A stretch of DNA of 64,000 bases from the IMG/VR virus record IMGVR_UViG_3300027754_000037, one strand, 5' to 3'. The notes below the pieces were generated by a model. That model had not been told where the DNA came from and searched no databases. It saw only the letters and a program-made list of their open reading frames with translations. This DNA comes from a virus (Duplodnaviria > Caudoviricetes). This document shows positions 2,685 through 43,051 of this stretch, in pieces. A program made the translations under genes and the position numbers. How positions within the stretch are numbered: the stretch's first letter is position 1; every line of letters begins with the position of its first letter.

Positions 2685-3436
2685 AGCAATTGCGTCCCAT
2701 CATAAAATTAAACAACGAGAAGTATGCCTTGCGTGATTGGATTTTGTCGCAATTTCCAGAAAATTACGAGGCAATGACATATGTCGAACCCTACGGTGGC
2801 AGCGCAGACATTCTTTTTTGCAAAAACAGGTCCACCACAGAAATCATCAATGATAGAGATGTAGAAATCGTCAATATTCTGCGAGCGGTCAGAGATGAAT
2901 CCAGCGAATTAGTCAAAAGGTTGAGCGCTTTTAAAACTGTTGCAGATGTCTTTGAAAAAGTAAATAAAAAGAAGAATTTTGATGACTATCTGGACCACGC
3001 CACTCACGACCTATACCTAAGAAAAATCAGCAGAAATGGAAATAAAAGCCAATTTTCTAAACCGAGTAGTCCTACAATTTGGAAGAATAACATCAAATCA
3101 ATTAATGATTATAGCATAAGATTGCAAGATGTTTATCTTTTTTGTAAACCTGCTTTAGAAGTTATCTATGCTTTTAACTGTGAGGACACATTTTTGTATT
3201 GTGATCCATCGTATTTGATAGACAACAAGGTATCGAAGACGGTTTACACATCAGATATGCCACCTGAAGATCATATTGAGTTGAGCAGGTTTTTGAATGA
3301 CTTTTCTGGCAAGGTTGTTTTAAGTGGTGTGATGTCACCTTTATACGCCAGACTTTACAAGAATTGGAACATGTCGAAGAAGCGTATTGCGACAGGCAAA
3401 GAGAAAAGAACAGAGATTATCTGGAAGAATTTTTAG
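2681..3436 (+). CDS. dam: DNA adenine methyltransferase, Dam/D12 family, with variant catalytic motif
   Basis: YVEPYGGSA (SAM-binding motif I), EIIND, YCDPSY in place of DPPY; start taken at the ATGA overlap. Confidence 0.8.
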   Translation: MKQLRPIIKLNNEKYALRDWILSQFPENYEAMTYVEPYGGSADILFCKNRSTTEIINDRDVEIVNILRAVRDESSELVKRLSAFKTVADVFEKVNKKKNFDDYLDHATHDLYLRKISRNGNKSQFSKPSSPTIWKNNIKSINDYSIRLQDVYLFCKPALEVIYAFNCEDTFLYCDPSYLIDNKVSKTVYTSDMPPEDHIELSRFLNDFSGKVVLSGVMSPLYARLYKNWNMSKKRIATGKEKRTEIIWKNF

Positions 3437-3484
3437 TCGCCCAACTTGCATAGATAAATCTCACAAAAAGTGGGAGGTCGATGC

Positions 3485-4045
3485 GTGTTAAGTTTTTTTC
3501 AAATGTGCGAAGTTTTAGAAAACTACATCGGCTACACAATTTACTGTGATTTAGATGGAGTATTGGTCGATCTAGAAAGAGGCGTAAGAGAAAATCTTGG
3601 CATGGGAAGTCCCATGAGTAGACTTGAGATGGTGAGATCTTTGGCGAGGATGAGGCGCAATAGTGATGAAGAGTTGGTGGAATTTTTCGCAAATTTGCCT
3701 TGGACTGAGGATGGGGAAAGATTATGGACATATCTAACGCCTTACGAGCCTTTGATTTTGACAGGCGGAGCGGAAGAAGCCAATGCGATTGGAGCAGGCA
3801 AAAACAGATGGGTACAGAGAAATCTTGGAATATCTGCAAGTAAAATTATTCACGAGAGTAACAAATCTAAGTTTGCGGGTCCAAATAAAATTATAATTGA
3901 TGATTATGACAAGAATGCCCGAGATTTCACTTCTGCTGGTGGCATAGGAATTTTACATACCAATACAGGTAACACGATTTCGCAGCTTAAAAACATTATT
4001 GTTGGTCAAATAAAGCCTAATCTTAGTGTGAGGGGGTTATCATGA
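3485..4045 (+). CDS. HAD-family 5'(3')-deoxyribonucleotidase-like protein
   Basis: IYCDLDGVLVD (DxDGV) and IIIDDY motifs; GTG start at 3485 follows GGAGGT by 7 nt. Confidence 0.8.
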   Translation: MLSFFQMCEVLENYIGYTIYCDLDGVLVDLERGVRENLGMGSPMSRLEMVRSLARMRRNSDEELVEFFANLPWTEDGERLWTYLTPYEPLILTGGAEEANAIGAGKNRWVQRNLGISASKIIHESNKSKFAGPNKIIIDDYDKNARDFTSAGGIGILHTNTGNTISQLKNIIVGQIKPNLSVRGLS

Positions 4046-4260
4046 AGTGTGACATGCCGGACTGTTGTAACGATTTTGTTAAAACTTATAAATTACATGG
4101 AATTTATGCGGGAGTGGCGCAAAAAGTCGAAGTGTATTTTTGCAATAATCACAAGATCAATGAAATCAACAAAAGAATTGATGAAATATGCGATAACAAG
4201 ATTTGTACTTTGCAGAATGTGAATCCATTTAAAGATGTGAAAATGCACATCAATTCATAG
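4042..4260 (+). CDS. Small Cys-containing hypothetical protein
   Basis: 72 aa, ATGA overlap with upstream gene; CxxxxC and CxxH. Confidence 0.6.
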   Translation: MKCDMPDCCNDFVKTYKLHGIYAGVAQKVEVYFCNNHKINEINKRIDEICDNKICTLQNVNPFKDVKMHINS

Positions 4261-4267
4261 ATAAAGC

Positions 4268-4474
4268 ATGAGGTCTTTTAAAGAATATCTATCAGACAAG
4301 CTTTCACATGACCAGCCTCCTAGTGCTGGCGATTTGGGAGACAATCACTCCAATGCTGACAGGAATTTTGGTCGTAGTGGCGCTAAGTCGAAGAATGTGA
4401 TGTCCGGGGGGTCTAAGTCGATTAGTGATTTGAATCCAGATCGTTTATTTGGCAAAAAAAGGTTTAAAAAATGA
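4268..4474 (+). CDS. Small basic protein with capsid-targeting-like N-terminus
   Basis: MRSFKEYL; CATAGATA box 4 nt upstream. Confidence 0.7.
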   Translation: MRSFKEYLSDKLSHDQPPSAGDLGDNHSNADRNFGRSGAKSKNVMSGGSKSISDLNPDRLFGKKRFKK

Positions 4475-4776
4475 ATTTTCAAAGATTGTGGGAAAACATG
4501 AAGTTGGGGGAAGAGAAAAAGCAGTCTCCCGATGACAAGGCCATGTCTGCAATCAGAACTGGTTTGGGTTTGCGTGAAGACTTTTGGGATGATTTCAATC
4601 TGATTGTGAATAACGCAGAGGGGTTATCAGCCCTGTTGGACATACCTGTGGAGAAGATATCCACATGGCGCAGCAAAGTTGAAGAGGTTCTTGACAAGGT
4701 TCGTGAGGCAGATGGCCAAAGCGAAGTGGGCAAGAACAAGAAAATTGTTAAAACTGGAATATCGGTGGGAGAATAA
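4471..4776 (+). CDS. Hypothetical protein
   Basis: 101 aa, overlaps both neighbours (ATGA, TAATG). Confidence 0.75.
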   Translation: MNFQRLWENMKLGEEKKQSPDDKAMSAIRTGLGLREDFWDDFNLIVNNAEGLSALLDIPVEKISTWRSKVEEVLDKVREADGQSEVGKNKKIVKTGISVGE

Positions 4777-5159
4777 TGAAAAATTTCCTTGAATTTATGC
4801 AGATGAAAGAAGACGATAACCAATCCCAAATTGCACCGGGGGGTCAAACTCCCTTGGGTCACGCATCTGGCGCTGGAGCACTACCTCAGACTGCTCCCGG
4901 TTCTCAACACGAGGAAAAAATCATAGAGGAATTGGGCAATTCTTTGCGCCGTGTTCTGGAAGAGAAATTATTTCCAGCTTTGGAAAAAAGCCATTTAAGC
5001 AAGACTAGTGCCATGAAACTGCTGCAAACAATAGTGAGTGAGGTTGCCAACAAGTTTGGATTGAGCGCATCGGCAGTTCAACAGACAGGCAAGAATGCTA
5101 TGACTACGAATTCTGAGCCTCGGATGCCTGCTCCGAATCAACCAACGGCTGCTGGCTGA
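4776..5159 (+). CDS. Hypothetical protein with capsid-targeting-like N-terminus
   Basis: MKNFLEFMQMKE; P/G/Q-rich ends. Confidence 0.75.
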   Translation: MKNFLEFMQMKEDDNQSQIAPGGQTPLGHASGAGALPQTAPGSQHEEKIIEELGNSLRRVLEEKLFPALEKSHLSKTSAMKLLQTIVSEVANKFGLSASAVQQTGKNAMTTNSEPRMPAPNQPTAAG

Positions 5160-30768: not shown

Positions 30769-33132
30769 ATGGCGCTTCTAAAAGGCTTCCCGCCTTCTAA
30801 CACAATTAGTCCAAGTGTTAGGATTACTGAAAAAGACCTGAGCTTTATTGCTCCTGAGCAGTCTAATCATGTTGCAGGACTTATTGGCTTCGCATCCAAG
30901 GGACCAGTCAATCTTCCTACCTTGATTAGCACCAGCCGTCAATTGCACACGGTTTTTGGCAATCCACACCCCGACACGAGCGATCCATTCCTTATCTACG
31001 CTGCCGATCAATACCTTCTGGTCGCAAACCAGTTGTATGTCGTGCGTGTTGCAGACACGGATACAGTCAGCGACGAGCAAGCTTTAGTAGCAACTGTCGA
31101 TGTGCCCGCTGCTGGTACTGTTGCCGAACTCGAGTCTGACACGGCTGGCCCTTACACCTTTGATGAGGATTCCTTCTTTAGGTGGAAACTCAACGGTGTA
31201 TTGTCTACAAAAACTCTCGTAGTTCTAGCAGGAACTTACACCACCGAAGAAGTCGAGATTGCCCTGAACGAGCAACTTGATCTGATCAATGATGGCATTG
31301 AGTTCTTTGTAAGCGGAACAGACACATTGGGTGTCAGAAGTTTGTGGGCATATGGCCCTTTCGCCTCTTTGGAACTTGTTTCCATCCAGAACGCCATTTA
31401 TGGCGGTGAAGTTGACGATAGCGTTGACTTGACCGATGGCGACATCCGCAATAATCCGACTGGATTGGGTACTGCAATGACGAGAGCTATGACCACCACG
31501 GGAACAGCTTTGTCTTTTGATTTGATCATATCGGACTCTCCAACTATTGATTTGGTTCTGGACGGAACCGACAATATCTTGATTGACCAAGTAGTCCAGT
31601 CTTTAGAATTGACCAACGACACCTACACCACCATTGACGACCTTGTCACTATGATTAACGGTCTTTTGGTCAGCGAAGGTGGCGATCTGATTGGTGGATG
31701 GCACGCTGTTGCGGTTGGCGACAACCTACGCTTTGTGACGGATCATCATGGCAAAGATGCCAGAATCAGAGTAAAGCCCAGCAGCACAGCAATCACCAGT
31801 TTGAGCAATCCATTTGATTTTGATACTCTGACTCACAGCGGAACCAGTCCTTCTGGCGCTGCCGATGATGTTGCTGGAACCAGCAGCTTCGGAGTCGTGT
31901 ATGGAGCAAATAATACAAGTGGCGATGTTAGCTTCACCCTGTCTGCTGACTCTCCCGGTATTGATGGCAACTACACCAAGGTTAAGATTAGCACCAGCAG
32001 CTACGACCAGACCTTCATTTTCGAGGTTTATAATAACGATGTGCAAGTTGAGTCTTGGGGTCGTCTGACCAAGGACACAGCAAGCCGATTTTATCTTGAG
32101 ACCTACATGGCTCTGGTTTCGGATTACATCCGTGTTCTTGACAACACGGCGATCCTAGCAGGTCCCCTGAACGGCGAATACGACCTGACAGGTGGATCAG
32201 ACGGTATCCCTTCTGATCCTGACGGTCAAGATGTTCTGCTCGCAGGAAGTCCTTTGGCATACACCGGCATCTACTGTCTCAGCGAGCCTGAGCAAGTTGA
32301 TATTGATCTCATCGCAATTCCCGGCCACTCCAGCACCGCAATCGTGCAGGAACTCTTGGCCTTCTGCCGTGATACTCGCCAAGACTGCTTGGCAATCATT
32401 GACTCTCCTTTCGGCCTGACCGTAAAAGAAGTTGTCGCATGGCAAAATGGTACACATCCTCTGAACACCACCAAATTCGACAGCGATTTCGGCGCTCTGT
32501 TCTGGCCTTGGGTCAAACTGTATGACCCATACAACAAGGTTGATGTGTGGTGTCCTCCCAGCGGTTCGGTGCTCGCAACCATCGCTCGTAGCGACTTCTT
32601 GAGCGCACCTTGGTTCGCACCCGCTGGTTTGAACCGTGGCGTTGTGCCCAACATCACAGATGTCTACAGCCGTCCTACTTTGCAAGAGCGGGACTTGATG
32701 TATGGCAATCGCAACTGCGTCAACCCGATTGTGAACTTTGTGGATGTCGGTGGCTTTGTGATCTTCGGCCAGAAGACCTTGCAGAGAACGCCTACGGCTC
32801 TGGACCGCATTAATGTTCGTCGTCTGATGTTCTACATCGAGAAGAGAATTCGCAAGGCCAGCCGTGGCTTGCTGTTCAATCCTAACGACGATATTTTCCG
32901 CAACAGGTTCGTGAGCATTGCTACTCAAATTCTCAATGAAGTAAAGATTGGTCGTGGCTTGACTGATTTCATAATCAAGGCAGACACAGAGCTCAATACT
33001 CCCGATGTGATTGATCGCAACGAGTTCCGTGCTCGTATCGGCGTGCAACCCACAAGGGCAGCGGAATTTATGTTCATCGAGTTCTCGATTCACAGAACGG
33101 GAAGCTTCGCTGAAGACGCAGCTACTTTCTAA
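30769..33132 (+). CDS. Contractile tail sheath protein (gp18-like)
   Basis: SPSVRITEKDLS, GPVNLP..I, PPSG...PWFAPAGLNRG, GQKTLQ...ALDRINVRRL, EFMFIEF. Confidence 0.97.
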   Translation: MALLKGFPPSNTISPSVRITEKDLSFIAPEQSNHVAGLIGFASKGPVNLPTLISTSRQLHTVFGNPHPDTSDPFLIYAADQYLLVANQLYVVRVADTDTVSDEQALVATVDVPAAGTVAELESDTAGPYTFDEDSFFRWKLNGVLSTKTLVVLAGTYTTEEVEIALNEQLDLINDGIEFFVSGTDTLGVRSLWAYGPFASLELVSIQNAIYGGEVDDSVDLTDGDIRNNPTGLGTAMTRAMTTTGTALSFDLIISDSPTIDLVLDGTDNILIDQVVQSLELTNDTYTTIDDLVTMINGLLVSEGGDLIGGWHAVAVGDNLRFVTDHHGKDARIRVKPSSTAITSLSNPFDFDTLTHSGTSPSGAADDVAGTSSFGVVYGANNTSGDVSFTLSADSPGIDGNYTKVKISTSSYDQTFIFEVYNNDVQVESWGRLTKDTASRFYLETYMALVSDYIRVLDNTAILAGPLNGEYDLTGGSDGIPSDPDGQDVLLAGSPLAYTGIYCLSEPEQVDIDLIAIPGHSSTAIVQELLAFCRDTRQDCLAIIDSPFGLTVKEVVAWQNGTHPLNTTKFDSDFGALFWPWVKLYDPYNKVDVWCPPSGSVLATIARSDFLSAPWFAPAGLNRGVVPNITDVYSRPTLQERDLMYGNRNCVNPIVNFVDVGGFVIFGQKTLQRTPTALDRINVRRLMFYIEKRIRKASRGLLFNPNDDIFRNRFVSIATQILNEVKIGRGLTDFIIKADTELNTPDVIDRNEFRARIGVQPTRAAEFMFIEFSIHRTGSFAEDAATF

Positions 33133-33163: not shown

Positions 33164-33802
33164 ATGGCACTAGAAAACAATCAACCAATGGGCATGGGTC
33201 AACTAGGTGGCTCAGGTCTTATCTTCAAAAGGAAGTACCGCTGGACATTCAAGGTGGACTGTAGCTGCGGTTTTGGCGAAATCCCCGAGTATTTCGTCAA
33301 GCTGGCTTCTCGCCCTAACTTGACGATTGAAGAGCAGGAAATCAACTACTTGCATGGCAAGATGTGGATTCCCGGCAAGGGCTCGTGGGAAACCATCACC
33401 GTAACCTATTACGACATCGCTGGACCCGACGCTGTTCAAGGCATGACCACGCTGTTTAGCTGGTTGGCAACGGTGTATGACTTCACCGATCCTGTCGGTC
33501 TCAAGCAGTCTTCCATCCGTGGTATTCCCGGTGGTGGCAATATTAACGCAAACGCCGCAACCCCCAACAATCGTGCTGGTGGCTACTCCGCAAGAGGAAC
33601 CCTGCAACTGTTTGACGGTTGCGGACAACCTGTGGAAAGGTGGACTCTGGACAACATGTGGCCTCAAGCTGTTAACTTTGGCGAGCTCGATTATTCAAGC
33701 TCTGAAGAAGTTACCCTTGAATTGACTCTACGCTATAGCGAAGTCAAGTACGAACCCCTCTGTGGTGGTTCGGTCAAGCCCTGCTGCGTTGGATGCGGTT
33801 AA
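33164..33802 (+). CDS. Tail tube protein 1 (gp19-like, probably major)
   Basis: Directly after the sheath; RPNLTIEE, GKGSWETITVTYYD, WPQAVNFGELDYSSSE. Confidence 0.9.
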   Translation: MALENNQPMGMGQLGGSGLIFKRKYRWTFKVDCSCGFGEIPEYFVKLASRPNLTIEEQEINYLHGKMWIPGKGSWETITVTYYDIAGPDAVQGMTTLFSWLATVYDFTDPVGLKQSSIRGIPGGGNINANAATPNNRAGGYSARGTLQLFDGCGQPVERWTLDNMWPQAVNFGELDYSSSEEVTLELTLRYSEVKYEPLCGGSVKPCCVGCG

Positions 33803-33876: not shown

Positions 33877-34419
33877 ATGGCAGAAAATATGGGTTTTGGA
33901 TTTGGACTTAATGGTCCGAATACCATCTATAAAAGAAAGCATCGTTGGCTTTTAAAAATTCCAGATGTTTCCGCTGAAGGAATTGACACCTTACCTCCGC
34001 AAAAGAGTGCAAGGCCATCCTTATCTTTCAAGGAAATTGAAGCTCAACATCTTACTGAAACAGTCTATTTCCCCGGTAAACCAGACTGGAAGCCTATTCC
34101 TCTTACCTTATATGAATTAAAAAAACCAAACAGACATCCTGTTTGGGATTGGTTATCCAATCCCAAATACGGCTGGACTTATGCTCCAGACAGAAAAAGT
34201 GAATTTCAGCCATCTTGCGATGGATTCAAAAAACAAAAAGCCCGTCTTGAAATGTATGACGGTTTTGGAGACACCATCGAAACATGGATTTTTGAGTCTG
34301 TTTGGTTTAACGATATTCAGTTCGGCGACCTTGATATGACAGATAGTGGTATCGTTATGTGCGAACTTACTCTTCGTTACGACAGAGCGTACTGGCAACA
34401 AGGTTGTATACGAAAATAA
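33877..34419 (+). CDS. Tail tube protein 2 (gp19-like paralog)
   Basis: RPSLSFKE, PGKPDWKPIPLTLYE, IQFGDLDM...CELTLRYDRA. Confidence 0.85.
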   Translation: MAENMGFGFGLNGPNTIYKRKHRWLLKIPDVSAEGIDTLPPQKSARPSLSFKEIEAQHLTETVYFPGKPDWKPIPLTLYELKKPNRHPVWDWLSNPKYGWTYAPDRKSEFQPSCDGFKKQKARLEMYDGFGDTIETWIFESVWFNDIQFGDLDMTDSGIVMCELTLRYDRAYWQQGCIRK

Positions 34420-35339: not shown

Positions 35340-35540
35340 ATGTATATCATGGAACTAATGCAAATTTTAGCAAACATTTTGGAAAAACCTGAAGTTCCTA
35401 GATTTTATCGTGAGCTACAATCATATTGCAACAATAACAATATGACAGAAGAATCTCAAGCTATAGCTTTCTTAATAGAGAAAAAATTCGAGAAAAAAAA
35501 TGAAGTCCCCGCTGACAATCAGCATATTGGTGAAAAATAA
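35340..35540 (+). CDS. Small hypothetical protein
   Basis: 66 aa overlapping the GT2 start. Confidence 0.55.
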   Translation: MYIMELMQILANILEKPEVPRFYRELQSYCNNNNMTEESQAIAFLIEKKFEKKNEVPADNQHIGEK

Positions 35541-36459
35541 CGCAGACACTATTCAAAGTTGTCTTGATTCTATAGCTTTTTTAAATTGCACAATTCAAAT
35601 AGGTGATTTAGGATGCACCGATGAAACAATCAACAAATCTCTGATTCACAAGCCAGAAATAATCAGACTATCCTGCAACGATGATCTTTCGGCAGCAAGA
35701 AATGAACTTATTTCCAGATGTAAAACTGAATGGCTTTTCATTCTGAATCCTTATGAAACGCTTTTATCGGGCGCTGATATTTTTTTGAATTGCATTTCTG
35801 GTCCATCAGAAATTTATAAAGTCTGCGTTTTGCAAAATGATTTGATCACCAAGGAAACCAGACTTTGGCATAAAAATAAAAACTTGCAATTCAAAAACCC
35901 CATATACGAAACAGTTGGCAGTAAAGGGAATCAAACACAAATTTTCTTGAATTCAGCAAATAAAAAAAACAAGATTGATGCTTTGCAAATTTGTAAAAAA
36001 TGGATGATCAAAAGCCCTATAAGTCCTGATCCTTTGTACTATATGGCCTGTGCCTGTCTGACAAAACAAAATTGGGACTCATTTTTGAATTATGCAGAAC
36101 AATATTTGCATCAAGAAACAAAAATGGAAATGTCTTTTTACATGACTCATTACTATTTGGCGTTGGTTAATTGCTATGTGAAAAAGGATTACACAAAAGC
36201 CTTGCAATCTGTTTTTTTATGTATTGCAAAAAAACCAATCATGGCAGAATTTTGGTGCCTTCTAGGAGATGTGTATTATGCTCTGAATGATTATGAAAAA
36301 GCTTTTCAATTTTTTCAAAATGGATTAATTATTGGGAAAAAAAGAAGAATGGATTGTGAGTGGTTTATGGAAATTTCAAAATACGAAGAGTATCCAAAAA
36401 AAATGATGGAGGCTTGCGCTTCCATCAAAAAACAAACATCTTTGTATGTGTCTCAGTAA
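35500..36459 (+). CDS. GT2-like glycosyltransferase domain + TPR, degenerate DxD
   Basis: ISILVKNNADTIQSCLDSI, DLGCTDET, DLSAARN, EWLFILNPYE (normally LDADE); C-terminal TPRs. Confidence 0.75.
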   Translation: MKSPLTISILVKNNADTIQSCLDSIAFLNCTIQIGDLGCTDETINKSLIHKPEIIRLSCNDDLSAARNELISRCKTEWLFILNPYETLLSGADIFLNCISGPSEIYKVCVLQNDLITKETRLWHKNKNLQFKNPIYETVGSKGNQTQIFLNSANKKNKIDALQICKKWMIKSPISPDPLYYMACACLTKQNWDSFLNYAEQYLHQETKMEMSFYMTHYYLALVNCYVKKDYTKALQSVFLCIAKKPIMAEFWCLLGDVYYALNDYEKAFQFFQNGLIIGKKRRMDCEWFMEISKYEEYPKKMMEACASIKKQTSLYVSQ

Positions 36460-36833
36460 ATAATATCCAATTCATTTACAATCACGGTGACCACATCTTC
36501 ATAACGAGACATTGCGATTTGTTTTCTTCCGGGTGCAAGCTTTCTGAGTTTTGCTTCTAATTCATCGATTTTGCAATTGATTACTGTCCAGTTGTTGTCT
36601 GCTAATTTTTTGATTTCTTCATCAAGTTGAGATACGGGCCTGCCGGGATAATACTGTTGGATTTGCTGTTTCGCCTCGTTCATGACCTTCTTGTAGATGG
36701 GCATATTGCAGGCACAGCCCGGATTGTTCAAAAATTTATTGATATCCTCTTTGAAATTTTCAGGCAAACTGTCCCTGAATCTTTTATCTCTCAGAGCTTG
36801 TTTCACATCCATCAAGGTAATGGGTCTACTCAT
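36453..36833 (-). CDS. Hypothetical protein
   Basis: 126 aa with NPGCACN. Confidence 0.7.
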   Translation of the reverse strand: MSRPITLMDVKQALRDKRFRDSLPENFKEDINKFLNNPGCACNMPIYKKVMNEAKQQIQQYYPGRPVSQLDEEIKKLADNNWTVINCKIDELEAKLRKLAPGRKQIAMSRYEDVVTVIVNELDIIY

Positions 36834-37871: not shown

Positions 37872-38957
37872 ATGGCAGATGACACTTTTCGCCCACGCAA
37901 GTTTGAAGAAACGACCCCCAACGATCCAGTCGATATGGCACAGCAGATGCGTCAACAGGTCAATCCTGAAGCAGCCTCTGAAAATCCTGTTCAAGGCGCA
38001 TTCAATATTCAAGGAAATGTTCCGCCAGCTTTTCAGGCAGCTTTAAGCGCAGCCAGAGGCGATTCGCCAAAAGAGCCCAAGCGTGGTTTTGGAAAAATGA
38101 GCACAGGCGGTGAGAGTCCAGTTGCCGCCAAACTTCAAAACTCTGGTTTGTCTGCTACTAGCCATCTTCAGGAACTTCTTCAAGGCCTGCGTGAAAACAA
38201 AACCATCTACGAAGAACTCGAATTGCCTTCTAAGGGCAAGTTCTACAATGGCGAAGACGGCCCTTTAAATGGCGTTATCTCCATTCGTGCTATGACCGGT
38301 GAGGAAGAGCAAATTCTTGCTACTCCCCGATTCGTCCGCAAGGGCCAAGCAATCAACATGATTTTTCAAAAGTGCATCAAGGAGAGTTTCCGACCAGAGA
38401 ACCTCTTGACGATTGATAGAACCTATCTCCTTATTTACCTGCGTGGTATTTCCTACAGCCCAGAATATGAAGTTGAAATTAAGTGCCCCGAGTGCGAAAA
38501 GAAGTTCAGTACCACAATTGACTTGAATAGCCTTTATGTTGAGTCTTGTCCCAGCGAATATGGACCCAATCTTCAAGATGTACTCCCCAACAGCAAGCTT
38601 CCTTTTACCTACAGATTATCAACAGGCAAAGATGAGCAAGACATTCAGGAACACAGGGATCGTCGCCTCAAGGCTTTCGGTGATGCTAGCGCTGATGATA
38701 CTTTGATTTACAGAACTGCACAGCTATTGCTTGACATCGATGGAATTACGGACAAGCAAGAACTTCAAGTCCTCCTCAAAAACCTTCCAATCAATGATGT
38801 CGCCTACATTAGAAGTTTGGTAAATGAACCTCCATTTGGTGTTGATACCAGCATTGAAATGGTTTGTGGCAGTTGCCTTCAAGAGTTTGATATCGACTTA
38901 CCCCTTGAAGCAAATTTTTTCTTCCCCCGGCGCAAGAAGGTGAAGACCCAAGTCTAG
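37872..38957 (+). CDS. Baseplate hub / tail assembly chaperone, T4 gp26-like
   Basis: ELPSKGKFY, IRAMTGEEEQIL, DRTYLLIYLRGISY, CPEC...CGSC, ends ANFFFP; SD AGGAG. Confidence 0.85.
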   Translation: MADDTFRPRKFEETTPNDPVDMAQQMRQQVNPEAASENPVQGAFNIQGNVPPAFQAALSAARGDSPKEPKRGFGKMSTGGESPVAAKLQNSGLSATSHLQELLQGLRENKTIYEELELPSKGKFYNGEDGPLNGVISIRAMTGEEEQILATPRFVRKGQAINMIFQKCIKESFRPENLLTIDRTYLLIYLRGISYSPEYEVEIKCPECEKKFSTTIDLNSLYVESCPSEYGPNLQDVLPNSKLPFTYRLSTGKDEQDIQEHRDRRLKAFGDASADDTLIYRTAQLLLDIDGITDKQELQVLLKNLPINDVAYIRSLVNEPPFGVDTSIEMVCGSCLQEFDIDLPLEANFFFPRRKKVKTQV

Positions 38958-39142
38958 TTCTTTGGCAGAACTTGGCTGAGGAAGTATTCTTTTTCCAATA
39001 CCACTTGCGTCTAGATATGTATGGGTCTATGAGTCTGCCAATCAACATGAGAAGGTGGTTGATTGAAAGGTTTATTCAACAAAAGGAAAGCGAAAATCAA
39101 GCAATGGAGGCCCAACAAAGAAAAGGAAGGTCTAGAAAGTAA
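38909..39142 (+). CDS. -1 frame extension of the gp26-like gene (gp51 / GT-like chaperone segment)
   Basis: 77 open codons in the -1 frame: ...LWQNLAEEVFFFQYHLRLDMYGSMSLPINMRRWLIERFIQQKESE...; stop overlaps the next ATG (TAATG). Confidence 0.75.
   Translation, partial: SKFFLPPAQEGEDPSLVLWQNLAEEVFFFQYHLRLDMYGSMSLPINMRRWLIERFIQQKESENQAMEAQQRKGRSRK
38912..38921 (+). promoter_or_regulatory. Candidate -1 ribosomal slippery site
   Basis: Overlapping X_XXY_YYZ heptamers A_AAT_TTT and T_TTT_TTC in the gp26-like reading frame. Confidence 0.7.
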
Positions 39143-39882
39143 TGGCAAAAGAAAGATATCAAAATCCGAGTTGCGGAGATGAGATTACGCTGCGATTGTT
39201 TACCTACCAAAGTAACAATCGCAGCAATGTCGAAAGCATTACAGAAATAAAAATTTATGTGATTGATGATACGCTCAGAACTTCAGAAAATCCTGAAGGA
39301 TTGCATTTGATTGAAACAATCGATGGATCAAATGTCGTCGAAGAAGAAACTGGACAATATTCGATTACATTTACAGCAAATCCAGACCTTTACATCATCG
39401 GCAATTATTACGATGCATGGACTGTAGTTTTTTCTACTGACGACTGCGCATCATCTGATATCTATAACAAATTCAAGTTGTATAGCCACCTTTGGTTTAC
39501 TTCTCCAGTACCTTTAATTTACGATTTTAACTTTAATTTCAGGCCAAACAGGATTCGCAAGGGCTCAAAACGCTATGTAATGGTGCAAATCACCCCGAAT
39601 GTTCCACGAGGTGCCGATATAACTCCCTATTACGAAAATCTTGCCATAGTCTCAGATTTAAGGGTCAGTATGTCACTTTCTTGTGGAGAATGTGTACCTG
39701 CTGAGGAAGACCTCAGGTTGGTTGTAGATCGGCACCTTGTGGAATATCGGGAAAAGGGTTATGGGTATTGGTATTTTGACACAAGTCTTTATGAAGAAGG
39801 CATTTACGATGTTTGGTTTGAGCTCGCTTTGGGCGAAAACATCTATCTTTCTGAAAAGAATGCCCTACAAATTTTCACTTAA
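39142..39882 (+). CDS. Putative virion protein with two beta-sandwich domains
   Basis: TGQYSITF...YYDAWTV and YWYFDT...GIYDVWFEL patterns; tail module context. Confidence 0.6.
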   Translation: MAKERYQNPSCGDEITLRLFTYQSNNRSNVESITEIKIYVIDDTLRTSENPEGLHLIETIDGSNVVEEETGQYSITFTANPDLYIIGNYYDAWTVVFSTDDCASSDIYNKFKLYSHLWFTSPVPLIYDFNFNFRPNRIRKGSKRYVMVQITPNVPRGADITPYYENLAIVSDLRVSMSLSCGECVPAEEDLRLVVDRHLVEYREKGYGYWYFDTSLYEEGIYDVWFELALGENIYLSEKNALQIFT

Positions 39883-40022
39883 TTGAAAATTTTCCAATTT
39901 ATTTGTATCTAGCGCACAAAACTTCCTGTAAACACATGTGCAACAGTAATTCGTTGTGTTTAACAACAACATGAATTCGTGTTACTGTGACCTACTATTC
40001 ACAGCAATACAGGGAGGTTTTC

Positions 40023-41660
40023 ATGCGCTCTTCCGATTCTTTATCCGCAAAACTGAACTGGTGGATTTCGCACAACAAAAATGTTCTCTTCGTGGGCAAA
40101 CACGGAGTGGGCAAAACGGCGATGGTCAAAGAGGCTTTTGACCAGCATGGTCTCAAATGGCGGTATTTTAGTGCTGCCACGATGGACCCGTGGGTTGACT
40201 TCGTGGGCGTGCCCCGTGAGAAAACGGAGCAAAAAATACCCAAAGAGTTTGAAATCATTCGTGAACTGGCCAGTATAAGCCGTGACATCGCAGTCCAATG
40301 GGTGGTCAACAACTGGAAACTCGATGTTTCTGCCGCTCAGACTGTGGTGCAGCACGCTGTTGATCGCAAGGAGGGTTTGACCCACCTCGAGATAGTGCGT
40401 CCGCACGACTTCGCAAGCGGAGAAATCGAAGCTTTGTTCTTCGATGAGTTCAACCGTGCTCCCAAAAAGGTGCGTAACGCCACGATGGAATTGATTCAGT
40501 TCAAGTCCATTAATGGTCACAAGTTCCCCAAATTGAGGTTCATTTGGGCTGCAATCAACCCAGACGACAACGAGTTGGGCTACGATGTGGAGAAGATCGA
40601 TCCCGCTACGCTGGATCGGTTCATAATCCCCGTCGAAGTGCCTTACAAGCCGAATGTGGAATGGTTCCGCATCAAGTACGGTCAGAGGCTGGCCGACAGC
40701 GCAGTTCAATGGTGGGACGAACTGTCAGACGAGGAGAAGAACAAAGTTTCTCCCCGCCGACTCCAGTACGCACTTGATGTGTTCGTGGAGAAGGGTGATG
40801 TTCGTGATGTTCTGCCTGTAAGCAGCAATGTCAGCAAGCTCATCACGGCTTTCAACACGGGACCCGTCACAGAAAAGCTGGATGCGCTGCTGCGTACCCG
40901 CAACGATGATGACACTCGTAAGTTTCTAAACAATGAAAACAACTTCGCTGCTGCCATCAAGTACATCCCCAAGGCTCCGACCTTGATGGAATACTTCACT
41001 CCGTTGATGCCCAAGGAGAAGCTTGCTTCTCTGATAGACACCGACGAGAAGATGGGTAGCTACATCATCAACAACATTGACACGGTGCCTGTCTTCAACT
41101 CCCTGTGCCACGAGATGGTTGATGCCAATCTCAATGCCAAGGTAGTGAAAAAGATTCGCCGTGCCTTGACCGAGAACGAGGGACTTGCTAAGGCTTATGC
41201 CCAGCGCACCTCGATTCAAAACCAAACCGCTCCGCAACACTTCAATGTGATGCGGGCGAACGCAAAACCTTGGGGTGCTCAACTTGTGGCCTTGAACAAT
41301 GCCGACTTCTCATCGGCTGCGAACAGGTCCGCAATCTACGAGATGATCGCCCAAAAAATACCCGCCAAACTCACGGTTGAGGAGGCGGTTGATACTTTGG
41401 TGCTGTTTGAGAAGCTTTTTTGCGACATCAACAGCATCAATGATGCAAACGAGAAGGGAAAGTGGCACTTCCCAAGTGTCTTGACGGGTTTTGACAAGTT
41501 GATGGGCATGGTGAATCATTGCTTGTACCAGATTCACATGAACACAGGTCAAAACCTTCCCAAGATCATTGAGGAAGGCAAATGCAAGTTTGGTAATCTT
41601 ATGACGAAGATTGTCAACGCTGGCCTGCGCCACCACCTCCCAAATGATGACTTCAAGTAA
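40023..41660 (+). CDS. AAA+ ATPase (MoxR/dynein-related)
   Basis: Walker A GKHGVGKT, Walker B LFFDEFNRA, AAINP, DPATLDRF; SD GGGAGG before ATG 40023. Confidence 0.9.
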   Translation: MRSSDSLSAKLNWWISHNKNVLFVGKHGVGKTAMVKEAFDQHGLKWRYFSAATMDPWVDFVGVPREKTEQKIPKEFEIIRELASISRDIAVQWVVNNWKLDVSAAQTVVQHAVDRKEGLTHLEIVRPHDFASGEIEALFFDEFNRAPKKVRNATMELIQFKSINGHKFPKLRFIWAAINPDDNELGYDVEKIDPATLDRFIIPVEVPYKPNVEWFRIKYGQRLADSAVQWWDELSDEEKNKVSPRRLQYALDVFVEKGDVRDVLPVSSNVSKLITAFNTGPVTEKLDALLRTRNDDDTRKFLNNENNFAAAIKYIPKAPTLMEYFTPLMPKEKLASLIDTDEKMGSYIINNIDTVPVFNSLCHEMVDANLNAKVVKKIRRALTENEGLAKAYAQRTSIQNQTAPQHFNVMRANAKPWGAQLVALNNADFSSAANRSAIYEMIAQKIPAKLTVEEAVDTLVLFEKLFCDINSINDANEKGKWHFPSVLTGFDKLMGMVNHCLYQIHMNTGQNLPKIIEEGKCKFGNLMTKIVNAGLRHHLPNDDFK

Positions 41661-41680
41661 TCATTTGCCCGAATCGTGTT

Positions 41681-41716
41681 AAGGTAGGTCGGGATTAAGT
41701 CCCGGCCTACCTTTTT
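41681..41716 (+). terminator. Stem-loop with T run between the AAA and VWA genes
   Basis: aaggtaggtcgggat-taa-gtcccggcctacctt. Confidence 0.7.
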
Positions 41717-41743
41717 GTTGGCACATAAAAAAAGGATTCAGCC

Positions 41744-43051
41744 ATGCAAACAACTACTCGGCCAGTCATCACTAACGAAGAATGGTATGAGATTAGCAAC
41801 GCTTTGGAACCACATCACGCAGTCTTCTACAAGTTATGGCAGATGGGAAAACCGGTTTTTGACGAACGAATACCTACCGCCTGCGTACAATTCGACAAGG
41901 AAGGTCAATTCGTAGTCTTCCGGTTTAACCCGAAGTTTTGGCAAGAGCTTGATCTACAAAATCGCTTGTTCGTGATCTGCCATGAGGCGCTTCACATCGT
42001 GCTCAATCACGGCATGCGTGCGATTGATGCAAAGATCAACGCACAAGCAACGAATGTGGCGATGGATGTCGTGGTCAATCACACTCTTGTCGAGAAATTT
42101 GGGTTTGATCGCAAAAATATTGACAACCAAGAAAATTACTGCTGGGTCGATACGGTTTTCAAAGACCGTGACCCTTTACCTGAAACCGATGAGGCTTTCG
42201 AGCACTATTACAACTTGTTCGAGAAGACTTACGGAGATGGTGGCATGGGTGACGGCGAGGCTGGCACACCTCAGACCGTTGATGATCACAGCGATATGGC
42301 ACAGCAAGGCCAAGATTGGGGTGATGTGATTGACAAGCTCAACGAGGGTCTTTCCGACGAGGAAAAAGAGACTCTCAAGGATACGGTAAAGAAACACTTC
42401 CAAAAACCTTCCGATAAGCCCATCGAAGATGCACCGGCTGGCACGGGCACGGGTGGTCAATGGGTTTTTGCTGGTGGACCGAAAGCTGTCAAGAAGCAGA
42501 AGTGGGAAACCATCATCCGCAACTGGGCAGCGAAGAGCATGAAGGAAAGCGACCGTGATGTCGAGCAATGGGCTAGGCTGAATCGCCGTCTGACCATGCT
42601 TCCACGAGACATGATCTTGCCATCAGAAATGGAAGTTGATGACTTCTATGACGAGAAAAACAAGATCGATGTGTGGTTCTTCCTCGACACTAGCGGTTCT
42701 TGCTGGAACCTAAAGGATCGTTTCTTTACTGCTGCCGAAAGTCTCCCAGAAAAACGCTTTAATTTGCGTTTATTCTGCTTCGACACGACAGTTGCAGAAA
42801 CCACTTTGGCCAGCAGGAAGATTTATGGTGGTGGAGGTACATCCTTTTGGATCATCGAAGACCATATTCAAAAAGTGATGAAGAATGAAAAGGCACAGTA
42901 TCCCAAAGCGGTTTTCATCATCACCGATGGACACGGTGACAATGTGAAACCGCAGTTCGCCAAGAACTGGCATTGGTTCCTGACTCAAGGCGGTTCAAAA
43001 GTTTACATTTCCAAAGAGTCGAACACCTACAATCTTGGTGACTTTGAGTAG
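41744..43051 (+). CDS. DUF2201-type metallopeptidase + VWA domain protein
   Basis: ICHEALHIVLNH (HExxH), NVAMD..VN, C-terminal LDTSGS MIDAS, GGGGTSF, ITDG. Confidence 0.9.
   Translation: MQTTTRPVITNEEWYEISNALEPHHAVFYKLWQMGKPVFDERIPTACVQFDKEGQFVVFRFNPKFWQELDLQNRLFVICHEALHIVLNHGMRAIDAKINAQATNVAMDVVVNHTLVEKFGFDRKNIDNQENYCWVDTVFKDRDPLPETDEAFEHYYNLFEKTYGDGGMGDGEAGTPQTVDDHSDMAQQGQDWGDVIDKLNEGLSDEEKETLKDTVKKHFQKPSDKPIEDAPAGTGTGGQWVFAGGPKAVKKQKWETIIRNWAAKSMKESDRDVEQWARLNRRLTMLPRDMILPSEMEVDDFYDEKNKIDVWFFLDTSGSCWNLKDRFFTAAESLPEKRFNLRLFCFDTTVAETTLASRKIYGGGGTSFWIIEDHIQKVMKNEKAQYPKAVFIITDGHGDNVKPQFAKNWHWFLTQGGSKVYISKESNTYNLGDFE

Follow-up and report, generated by a model that had tools for sequence, protein, structure and literature searches.

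Programmed frameshifting in tail assembly chaperone genes is regarded as nearly universal among long-tailed phages, with the T4-like phages, to our knowledge, as the accepted exception. Xu, Hendrix and Duda reportedly described the conserved programmed frameshift in these genes in 2004. In phage lambda, a single gene yields an abundant short protein (G) and a rarer, C-terminally extended form (GT) through an in-phase heptamer of the type X_XXY_YYZ near the gene end; E/E+E' of P2 is another frameshifted chaperone pair, and the frame of the extension (-1 or +1) differs between lineages in the chaperone families. Here, we describe a gp26-like gene that starts at position 37872 of a 64,000-nucleotide phage sequence (Duplodnaviria; Caudoviricetes; IMG/VR record IMGVR_UViG_3300027754_000037; hereafter the window, meaning this whole stretch of DNA) and that, judging from comparative sequence evidence, probably makes two proteins by -1 slippage on U_UUU_UUC.

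In T4, gp26 and gp51 are hub assembly chaperones by genetics; both are required for hub assembly, and at least gp51 is missing from the completed particle (PMC3004832). The gene studied here belongs to the same family, and an earlier note, made from the window's sequence alone, had proposed a -1 frameshift in it and had suggested that gp26/gp51-like pairs are equivalents of lambda G/GT. Like G/GT, the locus has one gene predicted to give an abundant short form and a rarer extended form through an in-phase X_XXY_YYZ heptamer near its end; the extension is a small separate domain, and several gp26-like relatives have the gene between those for tail tube and tape measure. Unlike G/GT, the gp26-like family has no sequence match to any Pfam chaperone family and is annotated 'baseplate hub' everywhere, its shared domain is much larger (~235 amino acids (aa)) with four conserved cysteines in zinc-ribbon-like spacing, the protein has a long variable N-terminal region, and the gene in the window lies away from the tape measure gene.

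An invariant putative slip site and a coding -1 frame

The gp26-like protein matched the Pfam family PF12322 (T4_baseplate) along nearly the whole profile (E = 3e-18; 66.6 bits against a cutoff of 24.5; profile positions 8-218 of 219) and phrog_150, a baseplate hub family (E = 2e-21). Structure matches in BFVD (n = 63, E <= 0.001) pointed the same way: the 50 listed were phage proteins, and those with names were baseplate hub or baseplate proteins. It is the only PF12322 gene in the window. The protein has 1210 relatives, and all 120 of those listed end in the same short basic tail.

Near its end, the gene reads GCA AAT TTT TTC (38910-38921), which contains two overlapping in-phase heptamers, A_AAT_TTT (38912-38918) and T_TTT_TTC (38915-38921). 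The -1 frame is open for 77 codons (38909-39139) and closes with a TAA (39140-39142) whose last base begins the ATG of the next gene. Slippage at either heptamer would give an identical 423-aa product with the junction ...EANFFLPPAQ.... Checked by sequence and translation, the coordinates, frames, 423-aa product and TAATG overlap given in the earlier note were all correct. Among the 151 in-phase X_XXY_YYZ heptamers found in the window's long open reading frames (ORFs), the median -1 opening was 11 codons, and the two at the slip run had the longest openings (76 and 75 codons) and extended furthest past the 0-frame stop (61 codons). The opening at the slip run thus exceeds chance.

A protein-guided scan of viral contigs recovered 60 loci with 50-79% identity to the gp26-like protein, and the 595-kb uncultured phage LR756511 supplied a more distant one. 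The resulting comparison set held 60 usable sequences (the window, LR756511 and 58 IMG/VR loci) with 39 distinct tails. Alignment of these homologous loci, which the earlier note had proposed as a check, revealed an in-phase T_TTT_TTC in 60/60 sequences. The codon ahead of it is AAT, AGT or GGT, encoding Asn, Ser or Gly and ending in T throughout, with GCA, GCC or GCG one codon earlier. Because this preceding codon varies, A_AAT_TTT is not conserved: it occurs in most relatives and is lost in several. Both of the overlapping heptamers pointed out in the window are therefore present there, but only T_TTT_TTC is kept among relatives.

The conservation extends to synonymous sites. Across 43 distinct gene sequences, the codons for N348, F349, F350 and F351 were frozen (AAT in 40/40, TTT in 43/43, TTC in 43/43 and TTC in 42/43, respectively), whereas 134/134 other conserved amino-acid columns upstream varied synonymously (mean codon diversity, 0.57). 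TTT and TTC were mixed in 9/9 of the other conserved Phe columns.

The -1 frame itself bears the marks of a coding sequence, as the earlier note had supposed. It is open for 73-79 codons from the heptamer in 60/60 sequences, with a mean column identity of 65% in the alignment of the extension, and 61 of 75 extension codons lie past the 0-frame stop, where no other gene overlaps. In that part, nucleotide diversity at -1-frame positions 1, 2 and 3 was 0.33, 0.18 and 0.53, a clear third-position periodicity. Within the 12-codon overlap, the corresponding values were 0.25, 0.10 and 0.21, lowered at all three positions relative to the downstream part, as expected for dual coding. Stop-codon reassignment was considered as another route to a longer protein and rejected: the 0-frame stop varies between TAG, TAA and TGA among relatives, and the extension lies in another frame.

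A natural in-frame long form

When 1.8 billion representative proteins were searched with a profile built from the extension, 210 matches were obtained, nearly all of them small ORFs with ragged starts. One match, a 327-aa protein (P0151), carries the PF12322 domain and the extension in a single frame, joined at ETGFFLPSP; this is the junction predicted for the slip (FFLP), and the existence of such a protein supports the -1 frameshift reading put forward in the earlier note. Because the overlap-encoded linker is present in this natural fusion, it belongs to the long protein. A word-index search for further natural long forms returned P0151 alone.

P0151 is encoded on a contig from a close metagenomic relative (L073), in which two tandem PF12322 genes (2883-4984) are followed, as in the window, by genes for a 244-aa protein, an AAA ATPase and a DUF2201 protein. 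In the short gene (371 aa), the heptamer is destroyed (GGG TTC TTT TTC) and the -1 frame is closed. The long gene, which encodes P0151 and lacks the long N-terminal region, carries no more than T5 where domain and extension meet, and the fusion is therefore not a homopolymer sequencing error. The arrangement looks like a frameshift resolved into two genes by duplication. The neighbourhood is that of the window, and the domain, linker and extension of P0151 are those of the predicted frameshift product, but on this contig the two forms come from gene duplication and the heptamer is unneeded in the long gene. In an AlphaFold model of P0151 (mean predicted local distance difference test (pLDDT), 81.5), which had alignment depth for the PF12322 domain and none for the extension, the extension forms helices at residues 263-286, 291-294 and 299-326, and the linker has a pLDDT below 50.

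Extensions in distant gp26-like genes

Three cultured giant phages (Atu_ph07, PA5oct and E. coli BF17) likewise have an in-phase T_TTT_TTC with a -1 extension. In Bacillus phages SP-15 and HSE3, Listeria LIS04, Streptococcus GXN1, Microcystis Mel-JY01, Flavobacterium immuto and LR756508, the extension lies in the +1 frame from the FF motif. The +1 junctions are usually UUU followed by C or U (TTT TTT CAC, TTC TTT CGT, TTT CTA, TTT CTT TGG and TTT TTT TGG), which suggests that a +1 slip of Phe-tRNA may serve in these relatives. In SP-15, no start codon precedes the conserved part, and the annotated 39-aa ORF starts in the middle of the domain.

These extensions were recovered by profile searches. 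A profile of the window clade, compared with 1841 six-frame ORFs, found the +1 ORFs at E-values of 7e-9 to 5e-3, and its iterated version detected GXN1 and immuto at 4e-8 and 7e-5. A broad profile scored the three -1 extensions of giant phages at 7.5-13.8 bits, above 200/200 shuffles. At the nucleotide level, the locus as a whole had no match in the phage collection.

Gene order in SP-15, LIS04, HSE3 and immuto runs sheath, tube, gp26-like gene, small ORF or gap, and tape measure or putative tail protein, with the immuto tube gene annotated as 'tail completion protein'. The gp26-like gene thus occupies the classical chaperone slot in these four phages. Mel-JY01 has the same order, followed by a large unannotated gene. 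A frameshift is annotated in none of the gp26-family records we examined. A preprint on phage G annotates a frameshifted chaperone between tube and tape measure, its family unstated.

Alternatives to ribosomal slippage

The same long protein could arise without a ribosomal slip if RNA polymerase added one extra U at the T6 run in some transcripts. The invariance of the run fits such slippage, as does the junction, which an inserted base would leave unchanged; T6 or T7 runs are also found in the +1 relatives SP-15, LIS04 and Mel-JY01, where loss of one U would serve. However, the codon after the run is TTC in 43/43 sequences, so that the run is capped at six and not lengthened, and T6 is shorter than the runs known to give useful transcriptional slippage in bacteria. 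No homopolymer is found in HSE3 and GXN1 (TTC TTT CGT in both), LR756508 (TTT CTA) or immuto (TTT CTT), and the exact X_XXY_YYZ phase seen in every sequence would be needless for a polymerase. We therefore regard polymerase slippage as unlikely.

A separate small gene would account for the extension if the 3' ORF were translated alone, with ribosomes either re-initiating past the TAG at 38955 or using a weak start, for example the TTG at 38972. In its favour, an ATG, GTG or TTG precedes the conserved motif in 15 of the 39 distinct relatives, an ATG overlaps the upstream stop in LR756511 and BF17, HSE3 has an ATG of its own, and databases hold ~200 separately called small proteins. Yet in 24/39 distinct relatives the stretch from the heptamer to the conserved EExFFF motif contains no ATG, GTG or TTG, and the start-like codons that do occur share neither position nor Shine-Dalgarno sequence, with only the TTG of two loci (L003 and L010) having a GGAG nearby. 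In the window, the first -1-frame ATG (39017) is within the conserved part and the sole start-like codon ahead of it, TTG 38972, lacks a Shine-Dalgarno sequence; the absence of a Shine-Dalgarno-led start, on which the earlier note had relied, thus holds for the window, and most relatives have no start at all. The starts assigned by gene callers are ragged and fall inside the conserved region. A separate gene would also leave unexplained the frozen synonymous sites of the heptamer, the loss of the heptamer in the short gene of the tandem pair and, weightiest of all, the natural fusion with its overlap-encoded linker. This makes independent translation of the small ORF quite improbable.

The window's DNA recurs in freshwater metagenomes (sequencing-run search), and one lake-water metatranscriptome contains two 151-nt pieces identical to 38757-38907 and 38993-39143, which flank the heptamer; they are compatible with transcription but no proof of it, as DNA carry-over is possible. 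The last alternative, that the open -1 frame is untranslated and reflects constraint on the gene end, a nucleic-acid element or the decaying remnant of a lost second gene, is highly improbable: the metatranscriptome pieces do stop short of the heptamer, but variation past the 0-frame stop concentrates at -1-frame third positions with no stop in 60 sequences, the peptide can still be recognised in phages of Bacillus, Listeria, Microcystis and Flavobacterium, RNA folding revealed no conserved structure, and the coding signature rules out an untranslated relic.

Tandem -1 slippage of two Phe-tRNAs on U_UUU_UUC is the most economical mechanism. On two alignments, RNAalifold returned nothing beyond a trivial hairpin and a weak long-range interaction in which the heptamer pairs with the EE codons (-5 kcal/mol, with no compensatory change). 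A hairpin in the window (38951-38978) pairs in only 48% of cells, below shuffles, and is not kept in relatives. Some relatives have a GGAGG 4 nt upstream of the heptamer, and no upstream Shine-Dalgarno sequence is conserved. As in lambda G/GT, the heptamer of the gp26-like gene may need little help from other elements and shift only a small share of ribosomes.

Similarity to tail assembly chaperones

A Pfam scan of the short form and of the extension returned only PF12322 and chance-level matches, with no tail-assembly-chaperone family (those named Phage_TAC_, XkdN or others). We also compared the P0151 long-form model with 48,161 PDB chains, using a tool whose caution line is Z 8. The best non-helical matches were YqbN (3KLU, Z 7.1), the HK97 chaperone (2OB9, 6.0), 3FGX (5.3) and the PLE chaperone (5IR0, 4.6). 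These four solved structures, which are tail assembly chaperones or share their fold (PMC9603447, PMC12987554), ranked 1, 2, 4 and 9 of the 48,161 chains, with 84-94 residues aligned and every score below Z 8. The modelled likeness to the chaperone fold is suggestive. Foldseek searches of the PDB and AlphaFold Swiss-Prot gave no match, and a profile search of PDB sequences gave no chaperone. The chaperone matches fall on different halves of the PF12322 domain in two models (residues 74-257 of P0151 and 1-76 of a gp51-like protein), which hints that a chaperone-like unit may have been duplicated within the domain.

Comparison with T4 gp26 and gp51

T4 gp26 resembles the predicted short form: it belongs to the same family, consists of the PF12322 domain alone and ends just past its FF motif. 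T4 gp51 resembles the predicted long form, with the full domain followed by a 48-aa C-terminal tail. The gp51-like model (pLDDT 92) has a C-terminal helix, short helix and helix (208-221, 226-230 and 234-249), the topology seen in the P0151 extension, and both match the same generic helix-loop-helix entries. A profile-profile comparison of the gp51 tail with the extension aligned DEIF.FY with EEIFFF.Y and MIP.ER with LPI.(E)RKW (P = 0.006); homology between the two is only probable, with weak sequence support. A comparison by hhalign of a narrow extension profile with the T4 gp51 tail alone was not significant. Nearly all of the gp51 relatives listed (P0275-P0366) carry PF28602, and because it is missing from the three shortest of them (220, 139 and 137 aa), this family probably covers the gp51 C-terminal tail.

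Unlike the window, T4 has two separate paralogous genes and no frameshift. Genes 26 and 51 stand on opposite strands and are therefore paralogs, no split pair. That they correspond to the short and long forms, as do the tandem genes of the close relative L073, is well founded for domain architecture. The equivalence of gp26/gp51 with G/GT suggested in the earlier note gains support from architecture and synteny and, suggestively, from the fold matches, but its pairing needs amending, as gp51 is a paralogous long form and not the small ORF. The T4 record (L066, 3803-4090) also annotates 26', a second gene 26 product that consists of the last 95 residues; in T4 as well, gene 26 thus gives rise to more than one form, by another route.

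Genomic context

The surroundings of the gene are those of a giant contractile-tailed phage. The window holds a sheath stabiliser, a sheath gene (30769-33132), a MoxR-like ATPase, a DUF2201 protein, ribonucleotide reductase and SbcCD. It also has two adjacent tail tube paralogs, at 33164-33802 (212 aa) and 33877-34419 (180 aa), both assigned to phrog_4542; two adjacent tube paralogs are likewise described in the phage G preprint.

The gp26-like gene (Table 1) is followed by a conserved string of genes (39142-43051) encoding a 246-aa protein, a MoxR-like AAA ATPase (39987-41660) and a DUF2201 putative metallopeptidase (41744-43051). The 246-aa protein has no Pfam or PHROG family; it matched only viral hypothetical clusters and, weakly, immunoglobulin-like or MG2-like folds. 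Its homologues occupy the same position in LR756511 (248 aa) and in the tandem-gene contig (244 aa). Elsewhere in the window, an in-phase AAAAAAA run at 36396, near the end of a glycosyltransferase/TPR gene (35500-36459), is followed by a -1 frame open for 54 codons, 33 of them past the stop; this frame overlaps an opposite-strand ORF (36453-36833) and may be open by chance.

Table 1 Features of the gp26-like locus, with positions in the window
Feature	Position	Strand	Remarks
gp26-like gene, 0-frame	37872..38957	+	ATG 37872 to TAG 38955-38957; 361 aa
C-terminal tail of the 361-aa short form, basic: FFFPRRKKVKTQV			From the ORF and its translation
PF12322 (gp26/gp51) domain	38220..38921	+	Residues 117-350; ends at the FF motif at the slip site
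TGA closing the -1 frame	38906..38908	+	Two codons ahead of the conserved heptamer; same stop in most relatives
Slippery run A AAT TTT TTC	38912..38921	+	Two overlapping in-phase heptamers
Conserved putative slip site T_TTT_TTC (U_UUU_UUC)	38915..38921	+	Invariant and in phase in 60/60 sequences
Dual-coding overlap	38922..38957	+	0-frame basic tail and -1-frame acidic linker LPPAQEGEDPS
Predicted -1-frame extension after the slip	38921..39142	+	73 codons and TAA; long form of 423 aa
Conserved extension core LW..LAEE.FFF.YH ... LPI..RKW.IERFI.QKE.EN...	38963..39139	+	From the alignment
Next gene, 246 aa	39142..39882	+	ATG overlaps the extension stop (TAATG); conserved neighbour

Discussion

Sequence comparison makes it probable that this gp26/gp51-family gene yields two proteins through -1 slippage on U_UUU_UUC. 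The ribosomal mechanism, the ratio of the two forms, their binding partners and the chaperone role are what we infer, as follows. Most ribosomes would read through to the TAG at 38955 and make the 361-aa short form, while a minority would slip back by one base on U_UUU_UUC at 38915-38921, where the two Phe-tRNAs would both re-pair; the overlapping A_AAU_UUU may contribute, and slippage on it would yield the same peptide. The slipped ribosomes would read 73 further codons to the TAA at 39140 and complete a 423-aa long form, in which the chaperone domain would be followed by a flexible acidic linker and a small helix-loop-helix domain whose end is basic. If lambda gpG/gpGT is a guide, the two forms may both use their common domain to hold tape measure and hub proteins, and the extra domain of the rarer long form could dock the complex to another part of the tail, such as the tube or hub proteins. 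Neither form would be expected to stay in the virion.

For the family as a whole, we narrowly favour the reading that gp26/gp51 is the G/GT chaperone of T4-type tails, that it was ancestrally frameshifted, and that T4 and a few others have split it, with 26 corresponding to G and 51 to GT. Under this reading, many giant phages would shift by -1 at U_UUU_UUC, phages that infect Gram-positive bacteria, cyanobacteria and Flavobacterium would shift by +1 at UUU_Y, and the helix-loop-helix tail would correspond to the T domain of lambda. We found no open paper or preprint in which gp26, gp51 or PF12322 is connected with frameshifting or with tail assembly chaperones.

Several observations weigh against these interpretations. 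With regard to the frameshift, a possible start for a separate small ORF exists in the 15 relatives described above and in BF17 and HSE3, and no conserved stimulatory RNA structure was found after the heptamer (single-sequence z-score, +0.54). With regard to the chaperone role, the fold matches all lie under the tool's caution line, and the gp51-like model recovers only 3FGX and 5IR0, at Z ~4 and on the other half of the domain. The gp26-like gene in the window is ~3.4 kb past the tube genes, with opposite-strand genes between and no adjacent tape measure gene. Finally, with regard to gp51, a hidden Markov model of the extension scored only 1.3 bits against the gp51 tail, with 8/200 shuffles as good, and PF28602 is not recorded on P0151 or the window clade in the collection's precomputed annotation.

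The gp26-like gene would fall under frameshifted tail assembly chaperones, an already known kind, and what it adds may be an explanation of gp26 and gp51. These T4 proteins have been called 'hub assembly chaperones' for decades with no known mechanism, and the frameshift reading may explain both. If the family is indeed of the frameshifted G/GT type, with the two forms encoded separately in T4, the T4 exception would vanish and two tail-assembly schemes would be joined. The hub-assembly roles of gp26 and gp51 would then become those of tape-measure chaperones, which is directly testable in a model phage, and the cultured phages that carry the site (PA5oct, Atu_ph07, E. coli Asteriusviruses and SP-15) are ready test systems. 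On the frameshift reading, hundreds of giant-phage 'baseplate hub' genes, together with the orphan small ORFs behind them, would be mis-annotated.

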